Positions 1 to 25,383 of a stretch of DNA of 64,000 nucleotides are shown one piece after another. Made by a program: the position numbers and the translations under genes. The stretch is from a bacterium (GTDB lineage: Bacteria; Patescibacteriota; Minisyncoccia; UBA6257; UBA9933). Position 1 is the first letter of the stretch. Every line of letters begins with the position of its first letter. The notes beneath the pieces are model-generated. The model saw only the letters and a program-made list of their open reading frames with translations. It had not been told where the DNA came from and did not search any database. The stretch spans positions 21,757-85,756 of the forward strand of contig JAJYWO010000002.1 of the NCBI GenBank assembly GCA_021791445.1. The letters run 5' to 3'.

Positions 1-804
1 GAAGTTACCGGACGCCTTGAAGAAACAATGACTTTTTTGGCGGATTATCTTGAAAAGGAAGCCAATTGGCGCTCGAAAATCCGCAATGCCATGATATACC
101 CGGTTTTTATTTTGGTTTTATTGGTGGCGGTTGCCATTTTGCTTTTAGTGGTGGTATTCCCCAAACTGGCGCCGGTTTTTGAAGAAATGGGCACGGATAT
201 CCCGATATTCACCAAAATATTTTTGGGCGCGGGAAATTTTATGCTTAATTGGTGGTGGCTGATTATTTTAATGGGGGGTATGGGAGTCATTATGCTGTTG
301 GAATATCTTCAAACTAAAGAAGGTCAGGTTGTGATGAATGAATTGAAAATCAGGATTCCGGTATTTGGAGGGTTGTTCAAAAAAATTTATGTGGCGCGCT
401 TTTCGGAATCTGTCCGCGTTCTTGTCAAAGGGGGAGTGCCGATCGCCCAGGCCATTGAAATAAGCAGCCACAATATCGGCAATATCGCTTACCGTGACGT
501 TCTCCATGAGATTTCCGAAAATGTGAGGGCTGGAGAAATGCTTTCTTCGCTTTTATTGAAAAACGATTATTATTTTCCGGATTTGGTCGGCCAAATGGTG
601 GCGATAGGCGAGTCAACCGGCCGCTTGGATGAAACGCTTTCCAAGGTGTCGGTTCTTTACACGCGCGAAGTGGACAATACTTTGAACAATTTATCCGAGC
701 TTATTCAGCCGGTTTTAATCAGCGTCATCGGCATTTTTGTCGGTTTGCTGTTTGCGGCGGTTTTGGTTCCGATATATAATATAGCGCAAGGGTTTAAATT
801 ATGA
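1..804 (+). CDS. pilC: Type IV pilus assembly protein PilC, C-terminal part (T2SS-F domain). Partial: the frame is open back to the window edge.
   Basis: Supplied ORF 28..804 is polytopic and GspF/PilC-like. The 9 codons upstream are in frame with no stop, so the gene starts before the window. Confidence 0.75.
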   Translation, partial: EVTGRLEETMTFLADYLEKEANWRSKIRNAMIYPVFILVLLVAVAILLLVVVFPKLAPVFEEMGTDIPIFTKIFLGAGNFMLNWWWLIILMGGMGVIMLLEYLQTKEGQVVMNELKIRIPVFGGLFKKIYVARFSESVRVLVKGGVPIAQAIEISSHNIGNIAYRDVLHEISENVRAGEMLSSLLLKNDYYFPDLVGQMVAIGESTGRLDETLSKVSVLYTREVDNTLNNLSELIQPVLISVIGIFVGLLFAAVLVPIYNIAQGFKL

Positions 805-840
805 TTAAACGGTCGAAGAATAATATTAGAATATTTAAAT

Positions 841-1281
841 ATGAAAAAAAATAAAGGTTTTACATTAATCGAAATGCTTATCGTTATCGCCATTATTTCC
901 ATTTTGGCGTCCGTGTTTTTGGTCGGTTTAAGAGGTTTTCGCGCGGGAGCTTACGATTCCCGAAGATTGGCGGATATGCAAAAAGTTCAGAGCTATTTGG
1001 AAATTTATTACACGAGAAATCGCCAGTATCCGAATGTCTCAACTTGGAGCGCCTTGCAAAGCGAATTGATTAATTCCGAGTTGGGAATATCGGCGATCCC
1101 GAACGATCCGGTGCCAAATCAAACTTATTATTACGGCGTTGACAGCACTGATTTTCAGAGTTATGTTTTGGGCGCGAGATTTTCCACTCCCGACCATTCC
1201 TCGCTTAAAGAGGGGACTGAACTCGACGGAACTCAATTCGGCGTCAATTGCGACGATCCGGTATTTTGCATCAGATTCTAA
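841..1281 (+). CDS. Type IV pilin with a prepilin N-terminal cleavage/methylation motif
   Basis: N-terminus MKKNKGFTLIEMLIVIAIISILA is a class III signal (G|FTLIE) followed by a hydrophobic helix. Confidence 0.75.
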   Translation: MKKNKGFTLIEMLIVIAIISILASVFLVGLRGFRAGAYDSRRLADMQKVQSYLEIYYTRNRQYPNVSTWSALQSELINSELGISAIPNDPVPNQTYYYGVDSTDFQSYVLGARFSTPDHSSLKEGTELDGTQFGVNCDDPVFCIRF

Positions 1282-2130
1282 ATGATTAATTATTTATCCT
1301 TTTTTATTATTGGCGCGGCCATCGGCAGTTTTCTTAATGTCATTTCTTTGCGCTACAAGCCGGGCAAAAAGCTTTTCAGCGAAGATGTTATCGCCGGCCG
1401 TTCGCATTGCCCTCATTGCCGAAAAATATTGAAATGGTACGAACTTGTGCCGGTTTTCAGTTTTATAATTCAAAAAGGGAAGTGCCGGCATTGCAAACAT
1501 AAATTATCGTGGCAATATCCGCTGATTGAAACTTTAAGCGGATTGATTTTTATTTTTATTCCGATTTCTCTCGGCGTGCCGATATTCGCTCCGCAGTCCA
1601 TTATCTGGATTTTGATTTTTTTCATTTTTATTTTAATCAGCCTCATAGATTTCAGGCATTACATTATTCCGGACCAATTGAATTTTTCTTTGGCGATCTT
1701 GGGATTGTTTCTGATAAGCATTAAAGAAAAAACCCGGACTTTCGGAATGTTTGAGGGTTCTTTTTTGGGGCATTATTCCGGACTTTTCGGATTGCGCGAC
1801 AATATTTGGATCAATCATTTTTTCGCCGCTTTGTTGGGAATGATATTTTTCGGCTTGATAATCATTTTAAGCCGCGGCCGGGCAATGGGTTGGGGAGATT
1901 TCAAATTAGTCGGCCCGTTGGGATTTATCTTCGGTTGGCCGGATATTTTAATGATTGTATTTTTGTCTTTCATAATCGGCAGCGTTTTTGTCGCTCCGTT
2001 ATTGATAAAAGGGGTTAAAAAAATGAAGGATGTTGTTCCTTTCGGGCCTTTTTTAATAATCGCTTCCTCTTTGACTTTTTTCTTCGGCTATCAAATTATC
2101 AATAGCTATTTCTCGCTTTTTGGGGTATAA
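1282..2130 (+). CDS. pilD: Prepilin peptidase (A24 family) PilD
   Basis: N-terminal CPHC...CRHC zinc motif followed by multiple TM segments. Directly downstream of the pilin gene. Confidence 0.85.
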   Translation: MINYLSFFIIGAAIGSFLNVISLRYKPGKKLFSEDVIAGRSHCPHCRKILKWYELVPVFSFIIQKGKCRHCKHKLSWQYPLIETLSGLIFIFIPISLGVPIFAPQSIIWILIFFIFILISLIDFRHYIIPDQLNFSLAILGLFLISIKEKTRTFGMFEGSFLGHYSGLFGLRDNIWINHFFAALLGMIFFGLIIILSRGRAMGWGDFKLVGPLGFIFGWPDILMIVFLSFIIGSVFVAPLLIKGVKKMKDVVPFGPFLIIASSLTFFFGYQIINSYFSLFGV

Positions 2131-2137
2131 TTTTAAA

Positions 2138-2653
2138 ATGAAGAAAGGATTTTCATTAACCGAATTATTGGTGGTTTTTGCGGTGATTGGCATATTGTCC
2201 AGCGGGCTGGTAATTTACAATCGCGCTACGGAACGCCAAATAATAATTTTTAAGGAACAAGCCAAAATAATGAGCGCCATTCAAAAAGCGAAATCTTTGG
2301 CTTTGGCGACATTTATTCAGCAAGAAGCGCCTTGCGGATACGGCGTTCATTTTGCGGAACCGAATATAATGATTATATTCAAAGAACTTTCTCCTTCGGG
2401 CGACGCAAATTGTTCCGATGTGGACAATATTTACACTTCCAACGCTGAAAATTTTGAAGAAATTAATCTTGATAAGGTTGTGAAATTCAGCAGTCTTGAA
2501 TTAAAAGATGTGGTTTTTACTCCGCCGGAACCGAAAGTTTTTATCGACGGAACGGATACCAGAAATGAAGCGTTAATAAAAATAAAAACCACCGACAATA
2601 AAGGGGAAAAAATAATCAAAGTCACAAATGCCGGACAAATTACAGCACAATAA
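2138..2653 (+). CDS. Pilin-like protein (prepilin-type N-terminus)
   Basis: MKKGFSLTELLVVFAVIGIL motif. ATG at 2138 preferred over the upstream in-frame Met at 2120. Confidence 0.65.
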   Translation: MKKGFSLTELLVVFAVIGILSSGLVIYNRATERQIIIFKEQAKIMSAIQKAKSLALATFIQQEAPCGYGVHFAEPNIMIIFKELSPSGDANCSDVDNIYTSNAENFEEINLDKVVKFSSLELKDVVFTPPEPKVFIDGTDTRNEALIKIKTTDNKGEKIIKVTNAGQITAQ

Positions 2654-3113
2654 GGGGTATCTTTTAATTGAATCCGTTGTCGCCATTACTCTTTTGGTTG
2701 TGGGTTTTTTGGGCATGTTGGCGTTGCTATCCAATTCAATAGCGTTAAACCGCGTCATCAACGACCAATTCATAGCCAATTATTTGGCGGCGGAAGGAAT
2801 TGAAATCATCAAGAATCTCATTGATTCCAATGTTATACAAGGAAAGCCGTGGAATGAAAATATCAACGCCGGCGATTTTGAAGTTGATTATCAAAGTTCG
2901 CAATTGGAGCCGAATCAAGGTAGACCCATTTTATTTGACGAGAATATTAAAAAATATGGATATGGAAGCGGCAATCAAACATTCTTTAAAAGAAAAATTT
3001 CCGTTGATTTTGTGAGTCCGGAACAAGTAAAAGTTAATTCAATCGTTAATTGGTCCACTCGCAAGGGCAAATTTGAAATAAATTTGGAAGACCATTTTTT
3101 TAACTGGAAATGA
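2628..3113 (+). CDS. Pseudopilin-like protein
   Basis: KGYLLIESVVAITLLVVGF resembles a minor-pilin class III leader. Overlaps the previous gene by 26 nt. Confidence 0.5.
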   Translation: MPDKLQHNKGYLLIESVVAITLLVVGFLGMLALLSNSIALNRVINDQFIANYLAAEGIEIIKNLIDSNVIQGKPWNENINAGDFEVDYQSSQLEPNQGRPILFDENIKKYGYGSGNQTFFKRKISVDFVSPEQVKVNSIVNWSTRKGKFEINLEDHFFNWK

Positions 3114-3688
3114 AAAAAAATCTCAAATCTAAAATCTCAAATCTCAAATCTTCAGACGGCTTTACCTTAGTGGAGCTTATTATGGCAATGAGCATTTTTG
3201 TGATTTTGGTGTCAATCGCGGTTGGCGGATTTATCAACATTTTAAGGAATCAAAGACTAGCCATCGCTTTGATGTCCGTTAACGACAATATGAGTTTAAG
3301 CATGGAACAAATGGCGCGCGAAATAAGAACCGGATATAACTTTATCAAAATATCCGACGAGGAATTCCAATTTGTCAACGCAAATAACAGAATAGTTTGG
3401 TATAGGCTGAGCAAGGGCGCCATAGAAAGAGTCACGGAAAACGCGTCTTTGGAAAAGAATCCCCAAAAAATCACCGCTGACAACGTAAAAATAGTGAAAT
3501 TTAACGTGGGAATTTGCGGGAGAAATCTCGACCCGAATTTAATTCTTGATTCTTGCGGCATCGGAGGAAGCGCGTATCCGCCGAGAATCACTTTAAGTTT
3601 TACCATAACCAGCGCCGAACCGGATATTGAAAGATTGAAAATTTTTACCAATATTCAAACAACAATAAGTTCAAGAATATTGATATAA
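3110..3688 (+). CDS. Pseudopilin-like protein carrying an in-frame heptanucleotide repeat
   Basis: DGFTLVELIMAMSIFVIL prepilin motif. N-terminal NLKSKISNLKSS is encoded by (TCTCAAA)n at 3121-3151. Confidence 0.6.
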   Translation: MKKNLKSKISNLKSSDGFTLVELIMAMSIFVILVSIAVGGFINILRNQRLAIALMSVNDNMSLSMEQMAREIRTGYNFIKISDEEFQFVNANNRIVWYRLSKGAIERVTENASLEKNPQKITADNVKIVKFNVGICGRNLDPNLILDSCGIGGSAYPPRITLSFTITSAEPDIERLKIFTNIQTTISSRILI

Positions 3689-5426: not shown

Positions 5427-6803
5427 ATGAAGAAAGCAATCCGCATACATTTTATAGGCATAGGAGGCATTGGAGTAAGCGCGTTAGCGCGCTATTTTTT
5501 GTCTGAAGGCCATAAAATCAGCGGTTCGGACGCTTCCCGTTCGGAAATCACAGACGAATTAAAGAAAGAAGGCATAAAGATCTTAATTGGCCACAAAGCG
5601 GCTAATATCTTCAAGAGTATCGATTTAATAATTCATAGCGCCGCTGTTAATAAAAATAACCCAGAAATTGGAGGGGCTGAAAAACTTGGCATTCCCCTGC
5701 AATCTTACAGTCAGGCGCTCGGCGAATTGACGAAACAGCATAAAACAATTGCCGTGGCCGGCACTTGCGGCAAAAGCACCACCACCGCCATGCTTTCGCT
5801 TGTTTTTGCAAAAGCCGGATTAGACCCAACCGTGATAATCGGCACCAAACTTAAAGAATTTGGCGAAAAAAATTTCAGGAAGGGCAAAAGCGATTATTTA
5901 ATAATAGAAGCGGACGAGCATTTCAAGTCTTTTTTGGATTACTCCCCTTTTGCGGCTATTATCACCAATATTGACCGCGATCATTTGGATTTTTATAAAA
6001 ATCTCAATAATTTAAAAAAATCTTTTCTGGACTTCATCGGGAATATTTGTTCAGGCGGCGTTTTAGTTGTTAATAAAGACGATAAAAATTTATTCGGTTT
6101 AAAAAATAAAATCCAAAAAATTGCCAAGAAAAATAAATTAAAAATTATCTGGTATGGCAAAGAGGAAAAATTAAAAAATATTTTAAAAATACCGGGCAAA
6201 CACAATGTTTCCAACGCAACAGCTGTTCTTGAAATGGCAAAAGCGGTCGGCGTAAAAGAAAAAGTCATTTTAAGAGCGTTAAGCGAATACCGCGGCGCCT
6301 GGCGCAGAATGGAATACCGTGGAAATCTCAAATCTCAAATCTCAAATCTCAAAATTTCGGTTTATGACGATTACGCTCATCACCCCTCCAAAATAAAAGC
6401 CGCTTTGGCGGGATTTCGCGAAAAATATCCGAAATCGCGAATTATTTGCGTTTTCCAACCGCATCAGTTACAGCGGTTAAAATATTTATTCAAGGAATTT
6501 TCCGAATCATTCAATGACGCAGATGATTTAATTTTATTGGATGTTTATAAAGTAAAAGGCCGCGATGAGTCTCCTTCTAAAATTAATTCTCAAAAACTGG
6601 CAGAAGCGATAAAGAGAAAGAAAAATTCATCAGAGGTTTTATATCTCAAATCCGCCGGCTGGCGGGAAAATAATCTCAAAAAAGAGATTGAGAATATTAT
6701 TCGCAATTCGCGGCATTCGCATACATTCGCGGATTCGTATCATGTAATAGTGATGATGGGCGCCGGAGACATTTATAAATTAACCGATAAATTAATTAAA
6801 TAA
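5427..6803 (+). CDS. murC: UDP-N-acetylmuramate--L-alanine ligase (MurC/Mpl family)
   Basis: IHFIGIGGIGVSALA..GSD N-terminus and AGTCGKSTTT P-loop. The ATG at 5427 is preferred over the GTG at 5418. Contains an in-frame (AATCTCA)4 repeat at 6324-6352. Confidence 0.8.
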   Translation: MKKAIRIHFIGIGGIGVSALARYFLSEGHKISGSDASRSEITDELKKEGIKILIGHKAANIFKSIDLIIHSAAVNKNNPEIGGAEKLGIPLQSYSQALGELTKQHKTIAVAGTCGKSTTTAMLSLVFAKAGLDPTVIIGTKLKEFGEKNFRKGKSDYLIIEADEHFKSFLDYSPFAAIITNIDRDHLDFYKNLNNLKKSFLDFIGNICSGGVLVVNKDDKNLFGLKNKIQKIAKKNKLKIIWYGKEEKLKNILKIPGKHNVSNATAVLEMAKAVGVKEKVILRALSEYRGAWRRMEYRGNLKSQISNLKISVYDDYAHHPSKIKAALAGFREKYPKSRIICVFQPHQLQRLKYLFKEFSESFNDADDLILLDVYKVKGRDESPSKINSQKLAEAIKRKKNSSEVLYLKSAGWRENNLKKEIENIIRNSRHSHTFADSYHVIVMMGAGDIYKLTDKLIK

Positions 6804-7471: not shown

Positions 7472-8239
7472 GTGTATTATTCCAATTTAGAGGGTTTTAA
7501 AAAGCTTTCCGGCTATGAAATAGACGGCGTTTGGTATCCGCGCGTCACGAAAATCGTGGAAATCAAGGCTAAGCCGGCTTTATACAGATTTTACGCGGAA
7601 TTGAACAATTTTGCCGAAGGCGAGTCGATAAAGGAAAAATCCGCCAGCGAAGGCACTTTAATCCACGAGGCGGCGGAGAAAATTTTTATCGGCGAATCCC
7701 CTGTCATTGACCCGTCAATCGCGCCTTCCATTGAAGCGCTTGTTAATTTTATTGAGAAAAAGAATATTCAAGTTGACCCGGAATTTGTTGAAAAGCAAGT
7801 TGTCCATTACGGAGACCGTTACGCCGGCACATTGGATGCCGTGGCTTTAATTGACGGGAAATTGGGCATCTTAGACATTAAAACATCGCAAGCCATTTAT
7901 CGCGATTACAATCTTCAGACATCGGCTTACATAGCCGCTTTGCACAGCAGTTTGAATAATCTTCAGACGAGATGGATTTTAAGGATAGATCAAACCAAGA
8001 TTTGCTTGAAATGCGGCGCCGTGTTGCGTTCCAAGGGCGGGCGGGATAAAATCCGCGCGCCGAAAGTGAAAAACGGCGTCAATCACGAAAAATGCGAGCA
8101 TCGCTGGTCCGAGCTTCGCGGTGAAATAGAACTTAAAGAATTTCCCTATTGGCAGGAGGATTACAAGGCGTTTTTGGGAGCGAAAAAGTTATGGGAATGG
8201 GAAAATGAGTATTGGTTGAAGAAGGCGGGATATTTATAA
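7472..8239 (+). CDS. PD-(D/E)XK family nuclease with a C-terminal zinc ribbon
   Basis: GTLDAVALIDGKLGILDIKTSQAIYRDYNLQTSAY gives D..D-x-K and QxxxY motifs. C-terminal CLKCG...HEKCEH. Likely a GTG start. Confidence 0.6.
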   Translation: MYYSNLEGFKKLSGYEIDGVWYPRVTKIVEIKAKPALYRFYAELNNFAEGESIKEKSASEGTLIHEAAEKIFIGESPVIDPSIAPSIEALVNFIEKKNIQVDPEFVEKQVVHYGDRYAGTLDAVALIDGKLGILDIKTSQAIYRDYNLQTSAYIAALHSSLNNLQTRWILRIDQTKICLKCGAVLRSKGGRDKIRAPKVKNGVNHEKCEHRWSELRGEIELKEFPYWQEDYKAFLGAKKLWEWENEYWLKKAGYL

Positions 8240-8264
8240 GGAAAAATTTTATTTTCCCTCAACC

Positions 8265-8365
8265 CGCTTCGCTCGCCCCAGCGAGGCGAGCTCGCTTATT
8301 CCTCGGCTCGCTCCCCCGCCTGCGGCGGGGACCATGCCCGCTCGCCTGCGCAGGTTTCGGAGAAA
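8265..8365. repeat. GC-rich cluster of three hairpins (GCTCGCC/GGCGAGC, CCCCGCC-TGC-GGCGGGG, CCTGCGCAGG), REP-like
   Basis: Seen in the sequence. Strongly GC-rich against an AT-rich background. It generates the spurious ORF 8212..8484. Confidence 0.5.
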
Positions 8366-8454
8366 ACAAAATTTTTCCTTATAAATTTATTATTGTTATA
8401 AAAAAACAGCCCGGCAAGGTTTTTATCCTTGAACCGGGTCTTATTAAATTAATT

Positions 8455-8688
8455 TTACTTTTTTACAAGACGAAATGCTCTTAATTCTGGATTTGCCGTT
8501 TTCCAATCTCTTGCGTACTCAGCCCTAAGATCACTAATAAAAGGTATTATGTCTAGCGCTAAAAGATCAGTGCAGTAAATCTTGTGATTTTCGTTTGTGA
8601 ACCTTATAAAACCATTTTTCATCTGATAAAATTCCATTTTTTCATTTTTTTGATCATAAATAATCATATCTCCTTCTTTCAATTTCAT
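8455..8688 (-). CDS. Hypothetical protein (77 aa)
   Basis: ORF with an AGGAG RBS. Downstream of the second copy of the promoter-operator module. Confidence 0.5.
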   Translation of the reverse strand: MKLKEGDMIIYDQKNEKMEFYQMKNGFIRFTNENHKIYCTDLLALDIIPFISDLRAEYARDWKTANPELRAFRLVKK

Positions 8689-9002: not shown

Positions 9003-9731
9003 TTAAATATTAAGATAGTTGCTCCACTTATCGTACAGTTCCTTCGTCGCTCTTAAATCGCCAGCGTTGTATCGGGCGATTTCCAAAAATTTTTTCTCTT
9101 TGTACAATCTGCCAACGTCGTCTCCGGTGACGCCGTCTTCTTTGGGGCTTTTTATGTTAAAAAGTTTGCTCCACAAATGCAGACTCCCCTTTTTGCGCAT
9201 ATTACCTTGAAAAGTGAGCTGGTCCGCCAAATCAATGTGCGTACAAGTTTTTTGTTGATATAAATACCGACTTTCGGAAAGATTTTTCGTGGGTCTGATA
9301 CCGTGATAAGCCGAGCGAATCATCAAAAACGGTCCGTCAAATTGCCGGCTGCTGAATCCGATAAATTCATCGTATATTTGGCTGCCCTTCCAGAAATGTT
9401 CCAACATTTCTTTTTCCGTCATTTGCTTGAAAGTGATGCCGTTTTCGCTGAATTCCTCTCCGCCAGCCGGCGGATTTTGTCCGGGCGCGCTGTAATAAAC
9501 AACCCCTTGGTTTTTCGCGTAATCCAAAACGCCGATTGCCACAATTTCTCCGGTTAAAGGCGAAAAACCGAGCCCGTTTTTCAGTTCTTCCAGAGCCACT
9601 TGATAATCCTCTTCTCCAGTTGATTCCTTTTTAATCCAGCGCGTCAAAGAATCTTGCGTTGTCTCGTCCAAAGAATCAAAATCAACTCCGATTGTCTCAA
9701 TATCAAAAATAAGCTTATTAGTTATTGACAT
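9003..9731 (-). CDS. RNase H-like 3'-5' exonuclease (DEDDy type)
   Basis: FDIET (Exo I), HIDLAD and Y-x3-D (YNAGD) motifs. Confidence 0.55.
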   Translation of the reverse strand: MSITNKLIFDIETIGVDFDSLDETTQDSLTRWIKKESTGEEDYQVALEELKNGLGFSPLTGEIVAIGVLDYAKNQGVVYYSAPGQNPPAGGEEFSENGITFKQMTEKEMLEHFWKGSQIYDEFIGFSSRQFDGPFLMIRSAYHGIRPTKNLSESRYLYQQKTCTHIDLADQLTFQGNMRKKGSLHLWSKLFNIKSPKEDGVTGDDVGRLYKEKKFLEIARYNAGDLRATKELYDKWSNYLNI

Positions 9732-10490: not shown

Positions 10491-11752
10491 AATTGAGATT
10501 TCAAAATCTCTATCGCTTTTTCTAGTTGCGGGTCGCGGTCGGCTTTAATATCTTCTTCCGTGAGATTCACTTCATAATCCGGAATAATGCCGTTTTTCTC
10601 AATCAAGCCGCCGTTCGGCATCAGCCAATGCGCAACGGTTATTTTCACCGATGAACCATCATTTAATTTTTCAAGTTCTTGAACCGTTCCTTTGCCGTAG
10701 CTTTTTTTGCCGATTAATTTAATTCCCCTGTTGTCGCGCAAAGCGCCGGCAAGAATTTCTGAAGCCGAAGCTGAACCCTCGTTTATTAAAATCACCATCG
10801 GCATATCTTTGAAAAATCCGCTGTTATTCGCTTTAAACTCTTCTTTTTCGCCGGAGCCGAATTCTTCGGTTACAACCAATTCGCCCGGTTTCAAAAACCA
10901 ACCCGCTAAATTAACGGATGCTTCCAGATAGCCGCCCGGATTATTCCTTAAATCAAGAATAATTCCTTTTGGATTTTGCATTGCTGCTTTGACGGCTGAT
11001 TGGTAAAACAAGAACGGCGCGTTTTCGTAAAAATTATAAAGATGGAAATATGCGATGTCTTTTCCTTCGGTTTCGCTCAGGGCAAGCATTTCAAAATCAA
11101 TGGTTGGAATTTGAATTATGTCGCGAACAATGGGAAATTCTTTCGGTTCGTTCCAGCCGTTTCTTTGAATGGTTAAAACAACGGTCGTTCCGCGCGGCCC
11201 TCTTATCAATTTAACTGCTTCGTCAACCGACATATCGATTGATACTTTGTCGTCTATTTTTAATATTTTATCCAGCGCTTTTAAGCCCGCTCTTTCCGCC
11301 GGAGTGTCTTTCAGCGGCGAAATTACAACCAGTTGGTCGTTGCGTCGGCCGATTTCCATTCCCACGCCGGAAAATTCGCCGCTGATTTCCTCATTGAATT
11401 TTTTAGCGTCCGACGGCGGCATAAAGACCGTGTTCGGGTCTTCCAAAGAATCAAACAAGCCGGAAATAGCGCCATAAACAAGTTTTTGATTGTCAACTTT
11501 TCCGGTGTCAACGTATTTTTCTTTCAAAATTTTCCACGCCTGCCAGAAGATATTAAAATCAACGGCTTCGGGTTTGCCTTCTTCAATATTGGCGACTCCG
11601 CGGAAAATAACGGTTTGGGGATTTTCAACGCCTTTGTTGTATCCCAAATAAAAGGCTTCTGCGGCTATTACGGCGACGATTGCCAACATAATTATCGCGC
11701 GAAACCATTTATTTTTAATGACTGTTTTGATAAATTTTTTCATTTTAAGCAT
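10487..11752 (-). CDS. ctpA: Carboxy-terminal processing protease (S41, PDZ-containing)
   Basis: GSASASEILAGALRDN...SYGKGTVQ catalytic region. N-terminal TM segment. Confidence 0.85.
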   Translation of the reverse strand: MLKMKKFIKTVIKNKWFRAIIMLAIVAVIAAEAFYLGYNKGVENPQTVIFRGVANIEEGKPEAVDFNIFWQAWKILKEKYVDTGKVDNQKLVYGAISGLFDSLEDPNTVFMPPSDAKKFNEEISGEFSGVGMEIGRRNDQLVVISPLKDTPAERAGLKALDKILKIDDKVSIDMSVDEAVKLIRGPRGTTVVLTIQRNGWNEPKEFPIVRDIIQIPTIDFEMLALSETEGKDIAYFHLYNFYENAPFLFYQSAVKAAMQNPKGIILDLRNNPGGYLEASVNLAGWFLKPGELVVTEEFGSGEKEEFKANNSGFFKDMPMVILINEGSASASEILAGALRDNRGIKLIGKKSYGKGTVQELEKLNDGSSVKITVAHWLMPNGGLIEKNGIIPDYEVNLTEEDIKADRDPQLEKAIEILKSQL

Positions 11753-13172
11753 TTTGATATTTTACACGAAAAAATTGAAAATACAAGACAAAAGTTATTA
11801 TTGCCAGATAATAAATTATTGCGCTTAAAATTCCCATATTGTTGCCGATTGGCAGAGAAATTCCGGAAAATATGTCAATGATTTTCAATTCATAAGCAAG
11901 AAATAAACTCACAAACCAGCCGTAAACCGCTGCCAGCGGCAAAGCGATGAATTCCAACGCCGCTAACGCGAATCCCATAATCATTATAATGGGAATCGCT
12001 TCCAGCACTAAAATATTTGCCGGCAGAGACAATAAGGAAAAATTGCCGAAATTCGCCAGAAGCAAAGGTATAACTGCCAATTGCGCCGAAGTTGTTGTCA
12101 GAAAATTTTCCCGCCAATTCAAAAAACCGCCTCCTTCTTTCATTTTGAAAAATTTTCTGATTGCCGGTGAAAGATAAACAATGCCGAGCAGCGCCATAAA
12201 CGACAGTTGAAATCCCAAATCAAAGCGCAGGATTTTCGGATTGTATAAAATCATTATGAAAGCCGCGGCAATAATGGCGTTGCGCATGCTGTGGACGCGG
12301 CCTATTTGTTTTGCCAATAAAATTATTCCGCCCATTACTGCGGCGCGGACCACCGACGCTTCAGCGCCGGTCATTAAGACAAAAAATGTAATTATTATAA
12401 GCGTGAACCAAAAAACCGATTTTCGGCGGCTGAAAAACTCCAAAAAAGACGAAATGGCGATAACGATAATCGTAATGTTTTGCCCCGATAAAGCTACTAA
12501 ATGAGTTGTGCCACTTTTCGCCATTTTATCTTTCAGTTCTTGGGAAAATTCCGCGCGTTCACCCAATGTGATTCCGGACAAAAAGGCCGCTTTTTCCGCT
12601 TTTAATGTTTTATGAAAAACGGCGATAATATTTTCTTTTAACTTGAAAAGTTTTGATTTTAAATACGAACCTTGATTTTCAATAAGCAGTTCTGTTTTTG
12701 GAAAATTTATCGTTCCAAATATATTGTCTTTGCTGAGATAATCCGCGTATCCTTGCGGTTCGGGTTTTTTAATTACCCCTTCGAATTTTATTAAATCTCC
12801 ATAATTGAAACTCGGGTATTGTCTAACGGTGGCGGTAATTTTTCCGGAATAAGGCGGTTGAAGCGCGATGGTTAATTTTTGCGCATTTCCTTTTTGCGGA
12901 TAGCTAACCACAATTCCGTCAAATGTTGTTTTCTCGTTGAATGAAATATTGGTTTTTTGTTCTTGAATTGCGCCGTATAAATTGCAATAAAAAAATCCGG
13001 CCAAAATAAAAAATGACAAAGCCGCAAACCATTTTAAACGATAAATTAAAAATATGGCTGATATTAAAAAAACCGATAAAACGGCTATTGCCGGAATTAA
13101 TTGAAAACTGGCAATAAAAACACCAATAAGAAAAAAGGAGACGGAATAAAAGAAAATATCGTAAAGGCGCAT
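11745..13172 (-). CDS. comEC: ComEC/Rec2-family competence channel protein. No beta-lactamase domain.
   Basis: Polytopic membrane protein with a GTTHLVALSGQNITII competence-domain motif. Confidence 0.65.
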   Translation of the reverse strand: MRLYDIFFYSVSFFLIGVFIASFQLIPAIAVLSVFLISAIFLIYRLKWFAALSFFILAGFFYCNLYGAIQEQKTNISFNEKTTFDGIVVSYPQKGNAQKLTIALQPPYSGKITATVRQYPSFNYGDLIKFEGVIKKPEPQGYADYLSKDNIFGTINFPKTELLIENQGSYLKSKLFKLKENIIAVFHKTLKAEKAAFLSGITLGERAEFSQELKDKMAKSGTTHLVALSGQNITIIVIAISSFLEFFSRRKSVFWFTLIIITFFVLMTGAEASVVRAAVMGGIILLAKQIGRVHSMRNAIIAAAFIMILYNPKILRFDLGFQLSFMALLGIVYLSPAIRKFFKMKEGGGFLNWRENFLTTTSAQLAVIPLLLANFGNFSLLSLPANILVLEAIPIIMIMGFALAALEFIALPLAAVYGWFVSLFLAYELKIIDIFSGISLPIGNNMGILSAIIYYLAIITFVLYFQFFRVKYQNA

Positions 13173-15587: not shown

Positions 15588-15635
15588 ATATTATTTTTAC
15601 GATTAATATTATTTATTATTTTTTTATTTTTGTCC

Positions 15636-15652
15636 GCCTTCGGCGGATGAAC
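15636..15652. repeat. REP-like hairpin TCCGCC-TTC-GGCGGA in the tRNA-Ile/tRNA-Val spacer. A tRNA-Val 5' fragment lies nearby at 15733-15756.
   Basis: Seen in the sequence. The reverse complement of 15733-15756 (GCGCGATTAGCGAAGTGG) resembles the tRNA-Val 5' acceptor and D arm. Confidence 0.45.
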
Positions 15653-15759
15653 GCTCTTCCTGGGTGGCTTTTATTGTCTGTAAGCCGCCCGTTGGCCTGA
15701 TATAAATTTTACTTCGTAAAATTTATGTGGCCAACCCACTTCGCTAATCGCGCAATTTG

Positions 15760-15841: not shown

Positions 15842-16057
15842 CTATTTCATTATCCCTATTTTTTTTAATCCGTCAAAGTTTATTTTAGGAATTCCATTTT
15901 CTTTAATCGTTCCTTCTCCGAGCGCTCCGCCGGCTTTTATCACTAAAAATCTAATGGCGTAAAAAATAAATCCGATTACGGCAATCAATAAAATCAAGCC
16001 GGAGACAACGAACATAATTTCTTTCTTTTTATTTTTAAAAGTAAAAAACTTTTCCAT
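15842..16057 (-). CDS. Small membrane protein, possibly a PilN-like pilus assembly component
   Basis: Single TM helix. Start is uncertain because the full ORF overlaps the upstream gene. Confidence 0.3.
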   Translation of the reverse strand: MEKFFTFKNKKKEIMFVVSGLILLIAVIGFIFYAIRFLVIKAGGALGEGTIKENGIPKINFDGLKKIGIMK

Positions 16058-16544
16058 TGAATAGCATTTTAAATTTCTTGTCCCGTTCGCTAATATCAAC
16101 ATTTTCCAATTTAACAACGTACTGGCTGTTTTCAACCGATCTCAAAAAAGCGATTAATCCGTTCAATTCCCCTTCCGCGCTGGCTGTCAAGCCGAGCGAT
16201 TTCAAATCGCCCGACGATTTGGCGTCTTCGCCGGAAAAACTTGATGTAAGACTTATTTTATTTTGTCCCGCCGCGATATCCAATTCTTTTGAGAAATTTA
16301 TTAGCTGATCCTTTGTCGGCAAAAGATTTTCAATTCCGAAAACATACGGCTGAACTTTATTGATTTCGCCGCGCATGGTTGACAGAGAATTAATTATTTT
16401 TGAGCGCAAACTTATTTCATTCCGGACTTCCTTTATTTGCTCGGATTTTTTTGAAATGTCAATTCCGACAAAAACCAAACCGCCAGCCAAGATTAAAATC
16501 GCCAAAATTCCCAATCCCGCTGTTAAAATCAACTGCTTTCTCAT
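16035..16544 (-). CDS. PilO-like type IV pilus assembly protein
   Basis: N-terminal TM segment, a coiled-coil stretch, then a periplasmic domain. Lies divergent from dprA. Weak assignment. Confidence 0.4.
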   Translation of the reverse strand: MRKQLILTAGLGILAILILAGGLVFVGIDISKKSEQIKEVRNEISLRSKIINSLSTMRGEINKVQPYVFGIENLLPTKDQLINFSKELDIAAGQNKISLTSSFSGEDAKSSGDLKSLGLTASAEGELNGLIAFLRSVENSQYVVKLENVDISERDKKFKMLFNGKVFYF

Positions 16545-16556: not shown

Positions 16557-17465
16557 ATGAAGAAAAGTTATAAAATCAACAGTATAAAAATAACAGATTC
16601 AAATTACCCTTCTTTGCTTAAAGAGATTCCGGACGCGCCGGAAAAGCTTTATATTATCGGCGAATTGCCGCCGGATTCTCCGATTGGCGGACCGCATATC
16701 GCCATTGTGGGCACAAGAAAAGCCGGTGCGACAGGCCGCAGATTTGCCAGAGAGTTGGCGAAAAAACTTGTTGAATCGGGCGCCGTTATTGTGAGCGGTT
16801 TGGCCATGGGAATTGACACCGCGGCCCACGAAGGCGCGGTTTTGGCCGGCGGCAAAACAATCGCAGTTTTGGCGAATGGACTGGACACAATTTATCCGGC
16901 GCAAAATGAAAATTTGGCCGAGAAAATTCTTGAATTTAACGGAGCAATTATTTCCGAATATGAACCGGGGACGCCGTCTTTCCAAAATCAATTTCTTGAA
17001 CGCAACCGCATTGTAAGCGGTTTAAGCATTGCCACAATCGTCATTGAGGCGCCCGAACATTCCGGTTCTTTGGTTACCGCGCGTTTGGCGGCTGAACAAG
17101 GCCGCGATGTTTTTGTTATTCCGGGCTCTATTGATAATCCTAATTATCGCGGTTCACATAAGCTTATTAGGGACGGCGCGGTATTGGTCGCTTCTATTGA
17201 AGATACTATGGAAGAATTGGGTGATAAAATTCCAAATTATAAATCACAAATTACAAATAAATCACAAATACAAAATTACAAAAAACAAATTAAAGATGAA
17301 AATCAATTGATAATTTATAAAGCGCTTCAAGAAGCCGGCGGACCACTTACTATTGACGAAATTGTCAAAATAACTAAACTTGAACCCCAAATCGCCAATC
17401 AAGCCGTTGCTTTTTTAATTATCGCTGAGATAATAAAAGAAGCGGATGGAAAATATAGTTTATAA
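16557..17465 (+). CDS. dprA: DNA processing protein DprA (Smf)
   Basis: IAIVGTRKAG...VIVSGLAMGIDTAAHEGAL Rossmann-like core. In-frame repeat at 17236-17292. Confidence 0.85.
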   Translation: MKKSYKINSIKITDSNYPSLLKEIPDAPEKLYIIGELPPDSPIGGPHIAIVGTRKAGATGRRFARELAKKLVESGAVIVSGLAMGIDTAAHEGAVLAGGKTIAVLANGLDTIYPAQNENLAEKILEFNGAIISEYEPGTPSFQNQFLERNRIVSGLSIATIVIEAPEHSGSLVTARLAAEQGRDVFVIPGSIDNPNYRGSHKLIRDGAVLVASIEDTMEELGDKIPNYKSQITNKSQIQNYKKQIKDENQLIIYKALQEAGGPLTIDEIVKITKLEPQIANQAVAFLIIAEIIKEADGKYSL

Positions 17466-22044: not shown

Positions 22045-22064
22045 GTTTTTAATAGCGCCCCCCT

Positions 22065-22322
22065 CTAAAACTTTTCTCGCTCACGACGCTCAGGTTAAAT
22101 AAATCAAATCACTCCAATCGCCCCGCACCTTTTCTTTTAATGATTTTTCTTTAATTTTACACTTAAGACGAAAGTCGGCTTCGCCTTTTAACTTTTTTTA
22201 TACTGTAAATCATGGCTGGAAAAGGTGCGGGGCTTCAATCCGCTCATTGATTTATAATTAACCTTGCGCGATGTTCGCTATGAAAAGTTTTGGAGGAGGG
22301 GTGTAAATAAAACTGAAAAATT
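22065..22322 (+). repeat. MITE-like element, copy A. About 60-bp imperfect terminal inverted repeats flank a 14-bp stem (GCCCCGCACCTTTT/AAAAGGTGCGGGGC) that encloses roughly 95 nt.
   Basis: The termini match the reverse complement of 42055-42306 at about 85%. The core differs between the two copies. Confidence 0.55.
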
Positions 22323-22480
22323 TTTCCGTAGTGAGTATCGCGGAAGAGCGTCTAAAAATCTGTTCATTTATAGCGTAGCGAGCCAGGCCCCCGAGCGAAG
22401 GCGAATTGGGTGGCGAGCAGCGTAATAAATGAACAAGATTTTTACGCTCTGGAGCGCCTACGAACGAGGAAAGATTTTTC
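22323..22480. repeat. Nested long inverted repeats around a GC-rich core (gcgagc-type), between copy A and parB
   Basis: CTGAAAAATTTTTCC/GGAAAGATTTTTCAG and GCGTCTAAAAATCTGTTCATTTAT/ATAAATGAACAAGATTTTTACGC pair with each other. Confidence 0.35.
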
Positions 22481-22492
22481 AGTTTTGATAGC

Positions 22493-23554
22493 TTATTTAG
22501 GATTCAGTTTTTCAATAATCCCTCTGATTTCTTCGGGTGAGAAGAATGAAATGATAATTTTCCCCTTTTCTCCTTCTCCGCCGGCCGGCGGATCTATTTT
22601 CACCGGAGCGCCGAGAAGTTCCATCAACTGTTCCTGTAAGGCGCCGAGTTCCGGGTCTGTTGTTGGAATTTTCGCGTCTGCCGGCTGGCGGATGGTTTTT
22701 TCTTCCGTTGGTTTTGTTTCGCGCCTGATTTTATTTTTTAATTCCCTGACGCTTAAATTATTCGCCAAAAGGTCGTAAAAAGCCGCCATCTGCTGGCTTA
22801 AGTCGTTAATGGTCAAAAGCAACCTCCCTTGGCTGTCGTTTATTTTTCCTTCCGCGAGCGCGTCTTGGATTTCCGTGGGCAGATTCAAAAGTCGTATCGT
22901 GTTGGCGATTGTTTCACGGCTCTTGCCGAGCTTGGCGGCAATTTCCCTTTGAGTCAAACCAAAATGGTCTTGTAATTTGGCGTAAGCTCTGGCGGTTTCA
23001 ATGGAATTAAGATTGGCGCGCTGGATATTTTCCACAATCGCCATTTCCATTTGCGGAGCGCCCGGAGCGATTCTTTTAATAATCGCCGGAATCCGCTCAA
23101 GTCCCGCCAATTTTGAAGCCATCAATCGGCGTTCTCCGGCGATAAGCTGATATTCAATTTGCGTGCCGTTTTCAACTTCGTGTTCTATTTTCGTAACAAC
23201 TATAGGTTGAATAATTCCGAATTCGCGGATTGACGCCGCCAGTTCTTTAAGCGATTCTTCGTCAAAAGTTTTTCGCGGCTGGAAAGGATTGGGTTTTATT
23301 TTTTCTATTTCAATATGAAAAATCGCGTCTTTGTGGAAAGAAGATTTTTCTTCCACTGATTGCGGTTTAACTGCTTGCGGCTGTTCTTGCAGTTGCGTTT
23401 GCTGCGGCTGGACTTGCGGTTGAGAAACTTGCGCTTGTTGAATTTGCGGCGCGAATTCGTGATAATGTTCTGTATCCGTCAAAGGCAGCATAAACGGCGC
23501 TTCTTCCTGCGGCTGTTGAGATTGTTGGGGTTGTTGAATATTTTGTTCGTCCAT
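22493..23554 (-). CDS. parB: ParB/Spo0J-like partition protein with a Gln/Pro-rich N-terminal extension
   Basis: ParB N-domain (GIIQPIVV..GERR) and HTH. The first ~70 aa are Q/P-rich low complexity. A copy of the REP hairpin sits in frame at 22687-22702. Confidence 0.8.
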   Translation of the reverse strand: MDEQNIQQPQQSQQPQEEAPFMLPLTDTEHYHEFAPQIQQAQVSQPQVQPQQTQLQEQPQAVKPQSVEEKSSFHKDAIFHIEIEKIKPNPFQPRKTFDEESLKELAASIREFGIIQPIVVTKIEHEVENGTQIEYQLIAGERRLMASKLAGLERIPAIIKRIAPGAPQMEMAIVENIQRANLNSIETARAYAKLQDHFGLTQREIAAKLGKSRETIANTIRLLNLPTEIQDALAEGKINDSQGRLLLTINDLSQQMAAFYDLLANNLSVRELKNKIRRETKPTEEKTIRQPADAKIPTTDPELGALQEQLMELLGAPVKIDPPAGGEGEKGKIIISFFSPEEIRGIIEKLNPK

Positions 23555-23609: not shown

Positions 23610-23690
23610 GCCCGGGTGGCGGAATGGCAGACGCGCGCGACTCAAAATCGCGTGCCGTAAGGCATGGGAGTTCGACTCTCCCCCTGGGCA
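23610..23690 (+). tRNA. tRNA-Leu(CAA)
   Basis: Long variable arm. Anticodon loop CTCAAAA. Hand-folded, and the acceptor pairing is slightly irregular. Confidence 0.75.
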
Positions 23691-23705
23691 CCGACTCATA
23701 TAACC

Positions 23706-23756
23706 GCTCCCATAGCTTAGTGGTAAATCCGCCAGCTGGCGGACTTTTAAGCAATT
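23706..23756 (+). pseudogene. tRNA-Lys 5' fragment in which the D-stem 3' strand and anticodon-stem 5' strand are replaced by palindrome TCCGCCAGCTGGCGGA
   Basis: GCTCCCATAGCTTAGTGGTAAA is identical to the 5' end of the intact tRNA-Lys. It then runs palindrome (23728-23743) followed by CTTTTAAGCAATT. Confidence 0.5.
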
Positions 23757-23768
23757 AATTAATATATT

Positions 23769-24032
23769 ATGGAAAAATTTTTTGTCTATGCTATTTACAA
23801 TAAAGAAAAGAATAAAATTTATATTGGACATACAATTAATTTAGAAAATAGATTAAAAAGACATAATGGGTTATTGAAAAATAAAAATAAATCATTTACA
23901 AGTAAAAATAGCGGCGTATGGGAAATAATTTATAATGAGAATTTAAATGCAAGAAAAGAAGCGATTCTAAGAGAAAAACAATTAAAAAGCGCTAAGGGTA
24001 GAGAATTTGTAAAAAGTTTGATAAGAATATAG
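23769..24032 (+). CDS. Stand-alone GIY-YIG nuclease (YhbQ/Slx1-like, 87 aa)
   Basis: FFVYAIY...IYIGHT.NLE.RLKRHN plus conserved downstream E and R..GRE residues. Confidence 0.75.
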   Translation: MEKFFVYAIYNKEKNKIYIGHTINLENRLKRHNGLLKNKNKSFTSKNSGVWEIIYNENLNARKEAILREKQLKSAKGREFVKSLIRI

Positions 24033-24064
24033 AATATAAAATATTGGGTAAAAAATATAAATAC

Positions 24065-24135
24065 GCTCCCATAGCTTAGTGGTAAAGCAGTTGCCTTTTA
24101 AGCAATTGATCAAGGTTCGATTCCTTGTGGGAGCA
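24065..24135 (+). tRNA. tRNA-Lys(TTT)
   Basis: Canonical cloverleaf. Anticodon loop CTTTTAA. Discriminator A. Confidence 0.9.
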
Positions 24136-24151
24136 CATTTGGCTTTTTTAA

Positions 24152-24228
24152 ATCCATAGCTTAGTGGTAAATCCGCCGGCTGGCGGACTTTTAAGCAATT
24201 GATCAAGGTTCGATTCCTTGTGGGAGCA
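24152..24228 (+). pseudogene. tRNA-Lys-like pseudogene with a degenerate 5' acceptor and palindrome TCCGCCGGCTGGCGGA (24172-24187) in place of the anticodon-stem 5' strand
   Basis: The 3' two-thirds are identical to tRNA-Lys. The 5' acceptor AAATCCA cannot pair with TGGGAGC. Confidence 0.5.
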
Positions 24229-24267: not shown

Positions 24268-25383
24268 TTAATCCATTTCTTTTTTTAAATCCTCCAATAT
24301 TTTTTTCGCTTTCGCATTCGGTTTTTTCGGGGTTTTGATTTTCAGTTCAACAACCAGATTACCGCGGCCGTGCGAGCCGAAAATCGGCATCCCCTGTTTT
24401 GAAATTATCAAATCTCCTTTCAAATCAAAATTTTCCGGAATTTCAATCTGGATTTTATTGCCGTCAATCGTTGGCGCTTCAATTTTTTCTCCCAATAAAA
24501 TATCAACCAGCTTCACTTCTTTTTTAACAAACAAATCATTTCCGCGCCTGTTGAAAATATGATGCGGCTTTATTTTGATTCGAACATAAAGGTCGCCGGT
24601 TCCCGCCCCTTTTTCTCCGGCTTCGCCCGCGCCTTGAACTTTTATTAATTGTCCGTCCATTATGCCCGCCAAAATTTCAATTTTTACATTGCGTTCGCCG
24701 GAAATTCTTCCGGCGCCGCGGCAATTATGGCAAACTTTTTTCGGAATCTGTCCGCTGCCTTGGCATTCTTTGCATTGTTTGATTTGGGTAAAATTGCCGA
24801 AAAAGGTGCTTCTCGCTTCTTTAATCTCTCCCCTGCCTCCGCAAACAGCGCATTTTTCCAATCCTTCTTTAATATCATAGCCTTTGCTTTCGCATTTTTC
24901 GCAAGAAACGGAAATGCCGTATTTTAATTCTTTTTTCGCGCCGTAAAAAGCTTCTTCAAGCGTTATTTCCTGGATAATTTCAACATCCGCTCCGCGATGG
25001 TAAGTGCGGCGTTTTTGTCTTACGCCCATTCCTTCGAAAAACGCGTTGAAAATATCGCCCAAGTCGGCCATATCGCCGAAAGCCGAAGGGTCCCAGCCCG
25101 AGGCTGGTCCGCCTTGGGCGGAAAAATCAAATCCGAATCCAAACGGACCGTTTCCATCGGAAGCGAATCCGCTTTGGCCGTCAAAAACCCTGCCGTATTT
25201 GTCATATTGCTCCCGCTTGTTTTTATCCGACAAAACCGCGTACGCCTCGGCGATTTCCTTGAATTTTTTTTCATCGCCGCTTTTTTTGTCCGGATGATAT
25301 TGATGCGCTAATTTTCGGAAAGCTTTTTTAATTTCGTCTTCCGACGCGCCTTTGTTTATGCCGAGAATTTTATAGTAATCCAA
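24268..25383 (-). CDS. dnaJ: Chaperone DnaJ
   Basis: J domain with HPDK and four CxxCxGxG repeats. Apparent TTG start. Confidence 0.9.

Follow-up and report, generated by a model that had tools for sequence, protein, structure and literature searches.

Rickettsia palindromic elements (RPEs) are palindromic repeats of a reduced bacterial genome that occur in frame within unrelated housekeeping genes and also between genes (PMC10969869). In the GC clusters of fungal and sponge mitochondria the loops evolve faster than the stems, units merge or nest within one another, and nearby endonucleases have been proposed as mobilisers (PMC4478555, PMC2800124). Repetitive extragenic palindromic (REP) sequences carry a GTAG or CGTC tag at one end of the palindrome (PMC3733652), and free-standing GIY-YIG homing endonuclease genes, such as that of phage T4 SegB, are found in tRNA clusters (PMC2330249). 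The present analysis concerns a 64-kb stretch of contig JAJYWO010000002.1 (hereafter the window) from a Wolfebacteria-like member of the candidate phyla radiation (CPR) of the Patescibacteria, and the GC-rich hairpins of the form TCCGCC-N3/4-GGCGGA that are dispersed through it. This motif is probably a selfish, non-autonomous, modular palindromic DNA repeat, analogous to the RPEs and the mitochondrial GC clusters.

The window encodes nine tRNAs, one 23S and one 5S rRNA and typical CPR genes. A protein of a metagenome-assembled genome named "Patescibacteria group bacterium" matches its LigA with 100% identity, and the nearest named relatives are Candidatus Wolfebacteria. Full-text literature searches returned no REP-like or RPE-like repeats, and none resembling transposable elements of the miniature inverted-repeat kind (MITEs), described in Patescibacteria.

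Occurrence of the Hairpin Family

All counts refer to the window, whose GC content is 40%, and the expectations for the full form and for CCGCC-N3-5-GGCGG were obtained from 100 dinucleotide-preserving shuffles. The full form TCCGCC-N3/4-GGCGGA was found 11 times against an expectation of 0.00, CCGCC-N3-5-GGCGG 14 times against 0.26 (with a maximum of 2 in any shuffle), CAGCC-N3-5-GGCTG three times against 0.04, and the 16-mer defined below, with at most one mismatch, nine times against 0.19. The excess is a direct observation, and the dispersed family of GC-rich palindromes that had been proposed in a sequence-only reading of the window is therefore genuine, its counts lying well above those of shuffled DNA. 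The excess resides in the palindromic arrangement and not in the k-mer, since CCGCC/GGCGG ranks only third in frequency among the all-GC pentamers of the window and yet, of the 20 hairpins whose 5-bp stem is all GC, 13 have it as their arms. Outside palindromes the half-sites occur at their Markov expectation (TCCGCC, 40 against 40.3; GGCGGA, 35 against 31.1).

Two subtypes were distinguished. The first is a 16-mer, TCCGCC-RGCY-GGCGGA, which is a perfect or near-perfect palindrome; the second is a 15-mer with a free 3-nt loop, often found as two units in tandem or with a TCAGCC-N3-GGCTGA unit as its partner. The hairpins thus appear alone (16-mers), as tandem 15-mer dimers, or as the tip of larger palindromic repeats, and both in the window and in relatives the arms are constant from copy to copy and the loops variable. 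Nesting within loops was seen directly. In one related locus (L127; such loci are cited by their L numbers) the tip of a composite element (described below) reads CCTCGCC-TCCGCCAGTTGGCGGA-GGCGGG where L090 and L116 have CCTCGCC-TTC-GGCGGG, and in L086 a 16-mer is nested in the loop of another TCCGCC hairpin. These two cases, taken together with the constant stems and variable loops, indicate that the 16-mer is a discrete unit.

The window holds about 17 copies, at least 10 of them inside open reading frames (ORFs), and the density of family hairpins is ~0.2/kb. Most of 80 related loci contain 0-3 family hairpins per ~20 kb, some of them with other hairpin families, and the density of family hairpins differs about tenfold among related genomes. 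Presence and absence at orthologous sites were likewise observed directly: L210 and L211, the closest relatives, whose ParB is 85% identical, have no 16-mers across the syntenic region. This fits acquired or expanding DNA, acquisition having been one of the suggestions made from the sequence. Another REP-like family, GTCATTCCCGCG-N-AGGCGGGAATCC, was encountered in the Wolfebacteria loci L053 and L068 as inverted pairs, with up to seven copies in 22 kb (for example L068, 1861-1925 and 9925-9990), which indicates that hairpin repeat families differ between CPR lineages.

The sequence-only reading had assigned all of its sites to a single family. The repeat exists, and the sites fall into different classes that were overlooked at that stage. 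Two of the positions then given, 23728-23743 and 24172-24187, were exact, and three others were corrected (15636-15652 to 15633-15647, 34884-34915 to 34894-34923, and 60876-60890 to 60883-60897). A supposed cluster of three hairpins at 8265-8365 is indeed GC-rich but represents the core of one 155-nt element (8232-8386, see below).

Copies within Protein-Coding Genes

About ten copies lie in coding sequence, namely in LigA (two), ParB (two), DnaJ, ValS, a MurC-like ligase, a PolB-exonuclease-like protein and PrsW; copies in ligA, parB and valS had been named previously, without positions, and were verified at 54385 and 55516 (ligA), at 22577, with a one-mismatch copy at 22677 (parB), and at 59739 (valS, of the TCAGCC type). 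It was observed directly that all of them preserve a frame compatible with translation, three frames being used, which give SASWR(T/E), PPAGG(E) or IRQPAD. Since deletion of a 16-nt unit shifts the frame, the coding copies must be translated. Judged by their alignment with homologues, the coding copies are lineage-specific in-frame insertions wherever relatives could be compared.

Thirty LigA homologues show four hypervariable hot spots, which in other lineages are occupied by single or double TCCGCC hairpins, by 7-8-nt AT-rich tandem repeats, or by the composite element described below; different lineages have their hairpins at different hot spots and in different frames. The copy at 54385 falls in a 14-aa gap of E. 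coli LigA, where homologues read KIKNQKSKIK. That at 55516 corresponds to a 13-aa gap of the E. coli enzyme and to a column occupancy of 0.02, is accompanied by no hairpin in the closest homologue, L081, and marks a hot spot that in other lineages reads SASWR or PPAGG. At the codon level the nearest LigA relative (82% identical) has no hairpin at either site. Across 83 LigA orthologues the TCCGCC hairpins are confined to insertion hot spots, mostly in columns of low occupancy (0.01-0.3); higher values were obtained for the copy of the window at ref 549 (0.82) and for the second dimer units of L016 and L037, which reach 1.0 via alignment placement. Other GC hairpins, which arise in these orthologues by chance, track conserved residues. 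The AlphaFold model of LigA is poor (mean predicted local distance difference test score 65.7) and only weakly indicates a coil conformation for the inserts.

In-frame AT-rich tandem repeats of 7-8 nt, such as (AAAATCA)n, translated as KIKNQKSKIK, and (GTATCAA)n, translated as IKYQVSS, occupy the variable loops of LigA (54360-54420, 55490-55560 and ~54190-54215 in the window; also L081, L003, L009 and L014), and family hairpins are often located within them. An apparent strain difference between L081 and L082 proved to be a scaffold gap of Ns.

The PPAGG segment of ParB is a 4-aa indel of patchy distribution among 28 homologues, being absent from L210 and represented by a decayed copy in L212. 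The double hairpin of dnaJ replaces a segment of equal length in relatives, and the DnaJ of L210 contains an independent decayed copy, TCCGCTAGTGGTGGA, adding 4 aa elsewhere in the G/F linker. ValS has a 9-aa insertion at its hairpin relative to T. thermophilus ValRS.

Copies within tRNA Fragments and Their GIY-YIG Neighbours

The adjacency of the hairpins to tRNA genes and their fragments, which had been noted previously, is borne out by four hairpins that lie within partial copies of tRNA-Val, tRNA-Lys and tRNA-Ser. The insertion between tRNA-Ile and tRNA-Val (15593-15758) is composed of a tRNA-Val 5' fragment (nt 1-11 followed by AGTGG), three hairpins and an A/T-rich spacer, and is bounded by the direct repeat TGCGCGATTAGC, which is identical with the first 11 nt of tRNA-Val. 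The fold z-score of the insertion is -5.15, and the third of its hairpins is TCCGCC-gaa-GGCGGA (15633-15647). A homologue of this insertion with an identical hairpin occurs in L212 upstream of tRNA-Lys, behind a 19-nt tRNA-Lys fragment, and in both the tRNA-Val fragment of the window and the tRNA-Lys fragment of L212 the tRNA homology stops after the D-loop AGTGG.

Comparison with the intact tRNA-Lys gene (24065-24136) showed that in pseudo-fragment A nt 23-30 have been exchanged for the hairpin TCCGCCAGCTGGCGGA (23728-23743); pseudo-copy C starts 14 nt downstream of the same gene. A corresponding exchange was found in a tRNA-Asn fragment of L017, in which the 16-mer TCCGCCAGCCGGCGGA stands in place of the D-loop AAC. 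In the interval between tRNA-Leu and tRNA-Lys, L210 has an unrelated 158-aa ORF and no fragments, and L212 has no insert; three different occupants of this interval were seen across three related genomes. The double hairpin next to the tRNA-Ser fragment (34894-34923) consists of TCCGCC-cga-GGCGGA and TCAGCC-tag-GGCTGA, and the whole segment 34894-34935 (fold z-score -2.72) lies 21 nt upstream of the second GIY-YIG ORF. The hairpins of the tRNA-associated copies are followed by A-runs.

A TCCGCC hairpin is located 20-60 nt upstream of both GIY-YIG ORFs of the window and of one in L017, and other palindromes lie upstream of GIY-YIG ORFs in five further relatives. The 87-aa protein shows a weak similarity to the catalytic N-terminal part of group I intron endonucleases (family TIGR01453). 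In the window and in L017, L034, L002, L038, L047 and L062, tRNA genes are adjoined by minimal GIY-YIG ORFs of 80-87 aa, usually behind a duplicated tRNA 5' piece in which a GC-rich hairpin replaces the D-loop or anticodon arm. The independent assemblies L214-L217 end at tRNA-fragment/hairpin repeats (window positions 15843, 24220 and 23613-24036), which indicates that such repeats fragment metagenome assemblies.

The Composite Palindromic Element

Two copies of a larger, composite element were observed directly in the window, a long form at 8232-8386 and a short form in the 23S-5S spacer at 60836-60939. The short form is built from an outer AT-rich stem, the 5' core GAAACCTAAACGGAAGCGCAG, a tip, the 3' core CGTGAGCGGGTTGAAG and the return of the outer stem, the tip being the family hairpin TCCGCC-ctg-GGCGGA (60883-60897). 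The 21-nt 5' core GAAACCTAARCGGAAGCGCAG gave 49 matches in groundwater metagenome contigs. These copies share one architecture, in which a variable AT-rich outer stem is followed by the 5' core, a variable GC-rich tip and the 3' core, and CGTGAGCGGGTTGAAG is nearly invariant although it lay outside the search pattern. A TCCGCC-N3/4-GGCGGA tip is present in the spacer copy of the window and in six metagenomic loci; the other tips include CCCCGC/GCGGGG, CCGAGCACTC/GAGTGCTCGG and even AATTTAC/GTAAATT. When 30 copies were aligned, compensatory double changes were seen at 22 of the 33 predicted pairs.

A covariance model (R1) was built from the metagenome copies. It scored the spacer copy at 106.4 bits and matched 8232-8384 on the minus strand with 34.1 bits (E 1.2e-6) and a 76-nt expansion of the core; the covariance-model check that had been suggested previously thus ties the two window copies into one conserved element. 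The long form begins at the stop codon of a PD-(D/E)XK ORF (7472-8239), carries CCCCGCC-tgc-GGCGGGG (8314-8330) within its core and has fold z-scores of -5.8 and -6.9. Homologues were detected by nhmmer in L034 (two copies, E 3.9e-13) and weakly in L014 (E 0.0076), and a similar long insert in L021 was retrieved only with the L014 insert as query. The consensus fold of the long form comprises an outer stem and two inner arms with compensatory pairs.

The composite element lies in frame and in sense orientation within LigA of L002, L120, L123, L125, L130 and L132 (as the long form in L014), and in frame and antisense within a GT2 glycosyltransferase of L087, L097, L101, L103 and L113, where it splits PF00535 at residue 93. 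The remaining copies are intergenic, and both window copies are non-coding. The orientation relative to host transcription is therefore mixed, since the copy in the rRNA spacer is also antisense. Apart from rRNA and tRNA, no Rfam family reached its gathering threshold in the window, with only chance-level matches at 8150-8480, and nothing was found in Rfam beside 20 metagenomic composite copies.

The near-invariant cores, the fixed bulges and the freely covarying helices suggest that the composite may be a functional structured nucleic acid. It is tempting to speculate, with rather little confidence, that the ~104-nt element (cores GAAACCUAAACGGAAGCGCAG and CGUGAGCGGGUUGAAG) serves as the module for recognition or catalysis in a mobility system, as yet undescribed, that targets hairpin loops, possibly together with the 80-87-aa GIY-YIG nucleases. 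Such a system would place the 16-nt palindrome in the loops of DNA stem-loops, such as tRNA D-loops, anticodon arms and palindrome tips.

Several matches were set aside. The R1 match at 60469-60605 falls in a real ORF and is not a copy, those at 45306, 29680 and 28854/28985 belong to a separate AT-rich palindrome family, and a scan of viral contigs with a 15-mer of the long form gave 76 matches, about the chance level, which were disregarded.

Alternative Explanations

If the palindrome is a selfish repeat, it would have spread as DNA, through either insertion or short-patch gene conversion, and would have settled for the most part in low-complexity AT-rich tracts and in loops of palindromes already present. 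Copies would persist only at sites of low harm, such as protein surface linkers, redundant 5' tRNA fragments, and intergenic or spacer palindromic elements, those in surface linkers being translated in any of three frames (SA-x-GG/SASWR, PPAGG or IRQPAD). Mobilisation may take place in trans by a structure-specific nuclease, the one candidate found repeatedly in the neighbourhood being the small GIY-YIG proteins. A number of results weigh against this account. No transposase or obvious mobilising enzyme occurs among the window ORFs, none of the 66 scanned encoding a transposase of the RAYT (REP-associated tyrosine transposase)/IS200 type or any other; the nucleases of the window are two GIY-YIG and two PD-(D/E)XK proteins, and the GIY-YIG proteins are linked to the hairpins by association only. 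Target-site duplications are not consistent: direct repeats of at least 6 nt flank seven of 46 sites, against 4.9% in controls, and all seven lie in AT-rich tandem-repeat contexts. In ten contigs of this species, recovered from other samples, the covered hairpins are 99.8-100% identical and free of gaps, so that no sign of ongoing mobility was seen; this identity and the lack of 16-mers in the closest relatives together indicate that the copies are fixed in the population and young with respect to genus-level divergence. The ParB copy is common to lineages ~59% identical and could reflect long retention, hence function, instead of repeated insertion. In the composite element the two core strands are near-invariant while both helices covary, a pattern which points to selection on a recognition or structural function and which a purely neutral "junk" model leaves unexplained. 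The basis of the account is, moreover, 64 kb of the genome.

The main rival, because the arms and the composite cores are conserved in sequence, is that a host protein binds the palindrome functionally, in double-stranded or cruciform DNA, for nucleoid organisation, segregation, termination or recombination, and that the genic copies are selected. REP sites are known to bind gyrase and integration host factor. Conservation of the arms concerns the sequence and not pairing alone, the 16-mer is a perfect or near-perfect 16-bp palindrome with the centre RGCY, and composite cores appear to be under purifying selection; in addition, the parB copy is kept in distant lineages, no canonical parS was found in the 64 kb that contain parB, and the recognition helix of ParB departs from GHAR. 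This explanation is nevertheless considered unlikely, since 16-mers are missing from the surroundings of parB in the closest relatives, whose ParB is nearly identical, the 15-mer class shifts the half-site spacing by one base, copies are nested in other hairpins and in tRNA pseudo-fragments, and the density varies about tenfold between related genomes. A role specifically as parS was rejected because the 16-mers are absent from L210 and L211 and represented in L212 by no more than a decayed copy. Action of the hairpins as RNA, as stabilising, processing or translational pause sites in mRNAs, tRNA precursors or the rRNA spacer, is still less probable. A perfect palindrome gives the same hairpin from either strand, the GC stems are very stable and some have UUCG-like loops, the copies lie in transcribed regions (coding sequences, tRNA clusters and the rRNA spacer), and the LigA hot spots are at domain boundaries. 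However, the copies are patchy among close relatives, which lack them, they are not 3'-terminal and have no U tract in the transcribed direction, and copies of the composite element are found both sense and antisense to host transcription, so that the RNA-stability or terminator role considered in the sequence-only reading found no support. As intrinsic terminators only the copies at 9459 and 22577 were flagged, both antisense inside genes. Excision at the RNA level, in the manner of a bulge-helix-bulge intron processed by RtcB and archease, was also rejected, because removal of 16 nt shifts the frame and the tRNA-Lys copies are not restored.

Codon-driven chance, or a mutational process that needs no mobile unit, for instance quasi-palindrome correction or template switching at tandem AT-rich repeats, could account for the several copies inside 7-8-nt AT-rich tandem repeats and for look-alikes that are coincidences (RelA, the GatA motif and a 23S helix). 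It is very improbable as a general explanation: the 12 bases of the arms are repeated unchanged in many genomes and in contexts unrelated to each other, and quasi-palindrome correction copies local flanks, not a constant sequence, so that sequence constancy largely refutes it. Hardly any weight is given to a DNA uptake sequence for natural transformation. The window does encode ComEC, DprA and type IV pilus genes, and the uptake sequences of Neisseria are often inverted pairs biased to genome-maintenance genes, but the half-sites show no enrichment outside palindromes, for which reason this explanation was rejected; the density is only about 1 per 5 kb, and the motif is absent from the closest relatives. 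A MITE was excluded as well, the outer stems being variable and the inner cores conserved, with flanking repeats of 11-22 nt at the tRNA sites and no insertion sequence found in the window.

Coordinates and Other Features of the Window

The mapped copies and the two GIY-YIG ORFs are collected in Table 1.

Table 1. Family hairpins, tRNA-associated insertions, GIY-YIG ORFs and composite elements located in the window.
Feature	Position	Strand	Remarks
MurC-like ligase, one-mismatch 16-mer TCCGCCGGCTGGCGGG	6651-6666	+	SAGWRE, aa 412-417; Mur_ligase_C match ends at aa 408
Composite element, long form	8232-8386	-	34-nt AT-rich closing stem and branched GC-rich core
PolB-exonuclease-like ORF (9003-9731), 16-mer TCCGCCAGCCGGCGGA	9459-9474	-	PPAGGE, aa 87-92; Pfam domain from aa 99
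Insertion between tRNA-Ile and tRNA-Val	15593-15758	-	166 nt; spacer of 5-6 nt in the relatives L210/L212
parB, 16-mer TCCGCCGGCCGGCGGA	22577-22592	-	PPAGGE, aa 322-327
parB, one-mismatch 16-mer TCTGCCGGCTGGCGGA	22677-22692	-	Third frame, IRQPAD; stretch 3 aa longer than in nearest homologue
tRNA-Lys pseudo-fragment A	23705-23752	+	nt 1-22, hairpin, nt 31-43; directly upstream of GIY-YIG ORF
GIY-YIG ORF, 87 aa	23769-24032	+	PF01541, E 1.9e-16; between tRNA-Lys fragment and intact tRNA-Lys
tRNA-Lys pseudo-copy C	24150-24228	+	nt 5-22, hairpin TCCGCCGGCTGGCGGA (24172-24187), nt 31-72
dnaJ, double hairpin CCAGCC-cga-GGCTGG + TCCGCC-ttg-GGCGGA	25093-25122	-	G/F linker, translated
GIY-YIG ORF, 80 aa	34631-34873	-	PF01541, E 2.4e-14; between tRNA-Ser fragment and intact tRNA-Ser (34536-34624)
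tRNA-Ser 5' fragment and double hairpin	34894-34935	-	Fragment 34925-34935, 11 nt, 9/11 identical
ligA, 16-mer TCCGCCAGCTGGCGGA	54385-54400	-	SASWRT, aa 547-552; insertion hot spot in HhH domain, (AAAATCA)n tract
ligA, 16-mer TCCGCCAGCTGGCGGA	55516-55531	-	SASWRT, aa 170-175; adenylation-domain loop
PrsW-protease gene (57050-57748), one-mismatch 16-mer TCCGCCGGCCGACGGA	57224-57239	-	
valS, hairpin TCAGCC-cga-GGCTGA	59739-59753	-	aa 33-38, followed by TGCGC-ttccg-GCGCA
Composite element, short form	60836-60939	+	23S-5S spacer, antisense to rRNA, 104 nt

Four look-alikes were excluded from the family. The terminator-like hairpin of tRNA-Cys at 36545-36575, which had been listed as a member, holds GGGCG-attc-CGCCC and has a different, weak fold (z-score -1.07). 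The motif in relA at 21914 is taken as coding sequence and not as an insert, because it entails no change of length relative to relatives and its residues are conserved in L212 (TADVAE), though not in L210 (TVDIGR). The GatA motif GSIRQPAAFCG (L018, L021 and L071) gives a family 14-mer by coding coincidence. The match at 62669-62687 is a native 23S helix (model positions 1206-1228); its tip on the minus strand, CUCCGCC-UUU-GGCGGAG, has the family arms and a 2-nt insertion relative to the bacterial consensus, and may be either a coincidence or a helix tip converted by the repeat.

Further palindromes were noted in the window. An intergenic repeat of ~250 nt with nested palindromes occurs twice in inverted orientation (22055-22312 and 42056-42305, 92-98% identical), and another element with an AT-rich outer stem and a GC-rich core (22309-22486) fills, together with the first of these copies, the convergent relA-parB spacer. 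AT-rich operator-like palindromes of the type (G)TATAACA..CGATCG..TGTTATA(C) lie at 28860-28907, 28983-29034, 29685-29734 and 45311-45356, positions that precede grpE-dnaK-dnaJ and rtcB and separate a PaaX_M/Cas2-like regulator gene from cysS, and a single regulator may bind to all of them. On the minus strand at 43928-46304, RtcB RNA ligase, a LigT-like 2',5'-RNA ligase/phosphoesterase and archease follow one another in a row as an RNA repair or splicing module.

Genes are oriented on the plus strand, which is G-rich, to the left of ~38 kb and on the minus strand, with C-rich sequence, to the right of it, a switch that looks like converging replication. The parB gene, without an adjacent parA, is situated here, with no canonical parS within 64 kb, and its recognition helix reads SQGR where GHAR is usual. 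Genes for natural transformation were located at 11745-13172 (-), 16557-17465 (+), 28-3688 (+) and 16035-16544 (-), the set comprising ComEC, DprA, a PilC-like protein, prepilin peptidase, pseudopilins and PilO. Comparison of L218 (1788-5276) with window positions 60705-64000 showed that scpB and scpA, and not 16S, follow the 23S-5S genes, and the rRNA operon therefore appears to be split.

Implications

CPR genomes are regarded as extremely streamlined, and it would follow from the reading as a selfish repeat that they carry and tolerate selfish palindromes even in the essential genes ligA, parB, dnaJ and valS. Variation in protein length and odd inserts (SASWR, PPAGG, SA-x-GG) in CPR proteins would need to be reread, assembly breaks at tRNA clusters could be accounted for by the hairpins, and annotators are warned of spurious low-complexity inserts and pseudo-tRNAs. 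How RPEs and mitochondrial GC clusters spread has been an open question for decades. The present family could serve as a model system, a bacterial counterpart to both with thousands of metagenomic genomes and a candidate enzyme, the minimal GIY-YIG protein.

Comparison with Known Systems

Three groups of dispersed palindromes and one group of endonuclease genes can be set beside the family. To the REP sequences, their mosaic assemblies (BIMEs) and the REPIN-RAYT systems it is similar in being made of short, dispersed, GC-rich palindromes, sometimes in tandem pairs, with species-specific sequences. It is not, however, a REP or BIME in the strict sense, REP/BIME-like elements having been one of the possibilities raised from the sequence, because no RAYT or other transposase is encoded in the 64-kb window, no tag is present, and most copies (at least 10), unlike the extragenic REPs, lie within genes and are translated. 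Neither GTAG/CTAC nor CGTC/GACG abuts the stem of any window copy, and the units measure 15-16 nt (30 nt as dimers) in place of the usual 20-40 bp. The minimal GIY-YIG genes recall those of the SegB type in being small, in lying between tRNA genes and in differing in presence among close relatives, but they encode only 80-87 aa, a catalytic domain without a DNA-binding domain, and are flanked by a hairpin-disrupted 5' duplicate of a tRNA.

The resemblance to RPEs appears in the composite elements of 100-155 nt, which by analogy are comparable to them in being carried in frame within LigA and GT2 of related genomes. The differences are the CPR phylum, a commonest unit of 15-16 nt, the modular build, the GC-rich sequence in a genome of 40% GC and the link with tRNA 5' fragments. 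With the mitochondrial GC clusters the family shares short, dispersed, GC-rich hairpins in AT-richer DNA, some of them in coding or RNA genes, and also the invariant stems with variable loops, the dimers and the nesting seen in L086 and L127. It differs from them in that it is bacterial, that no AG/TAG-type target duplication was seen beside its copies, and that the copies in coding sequence are in frame and translated.

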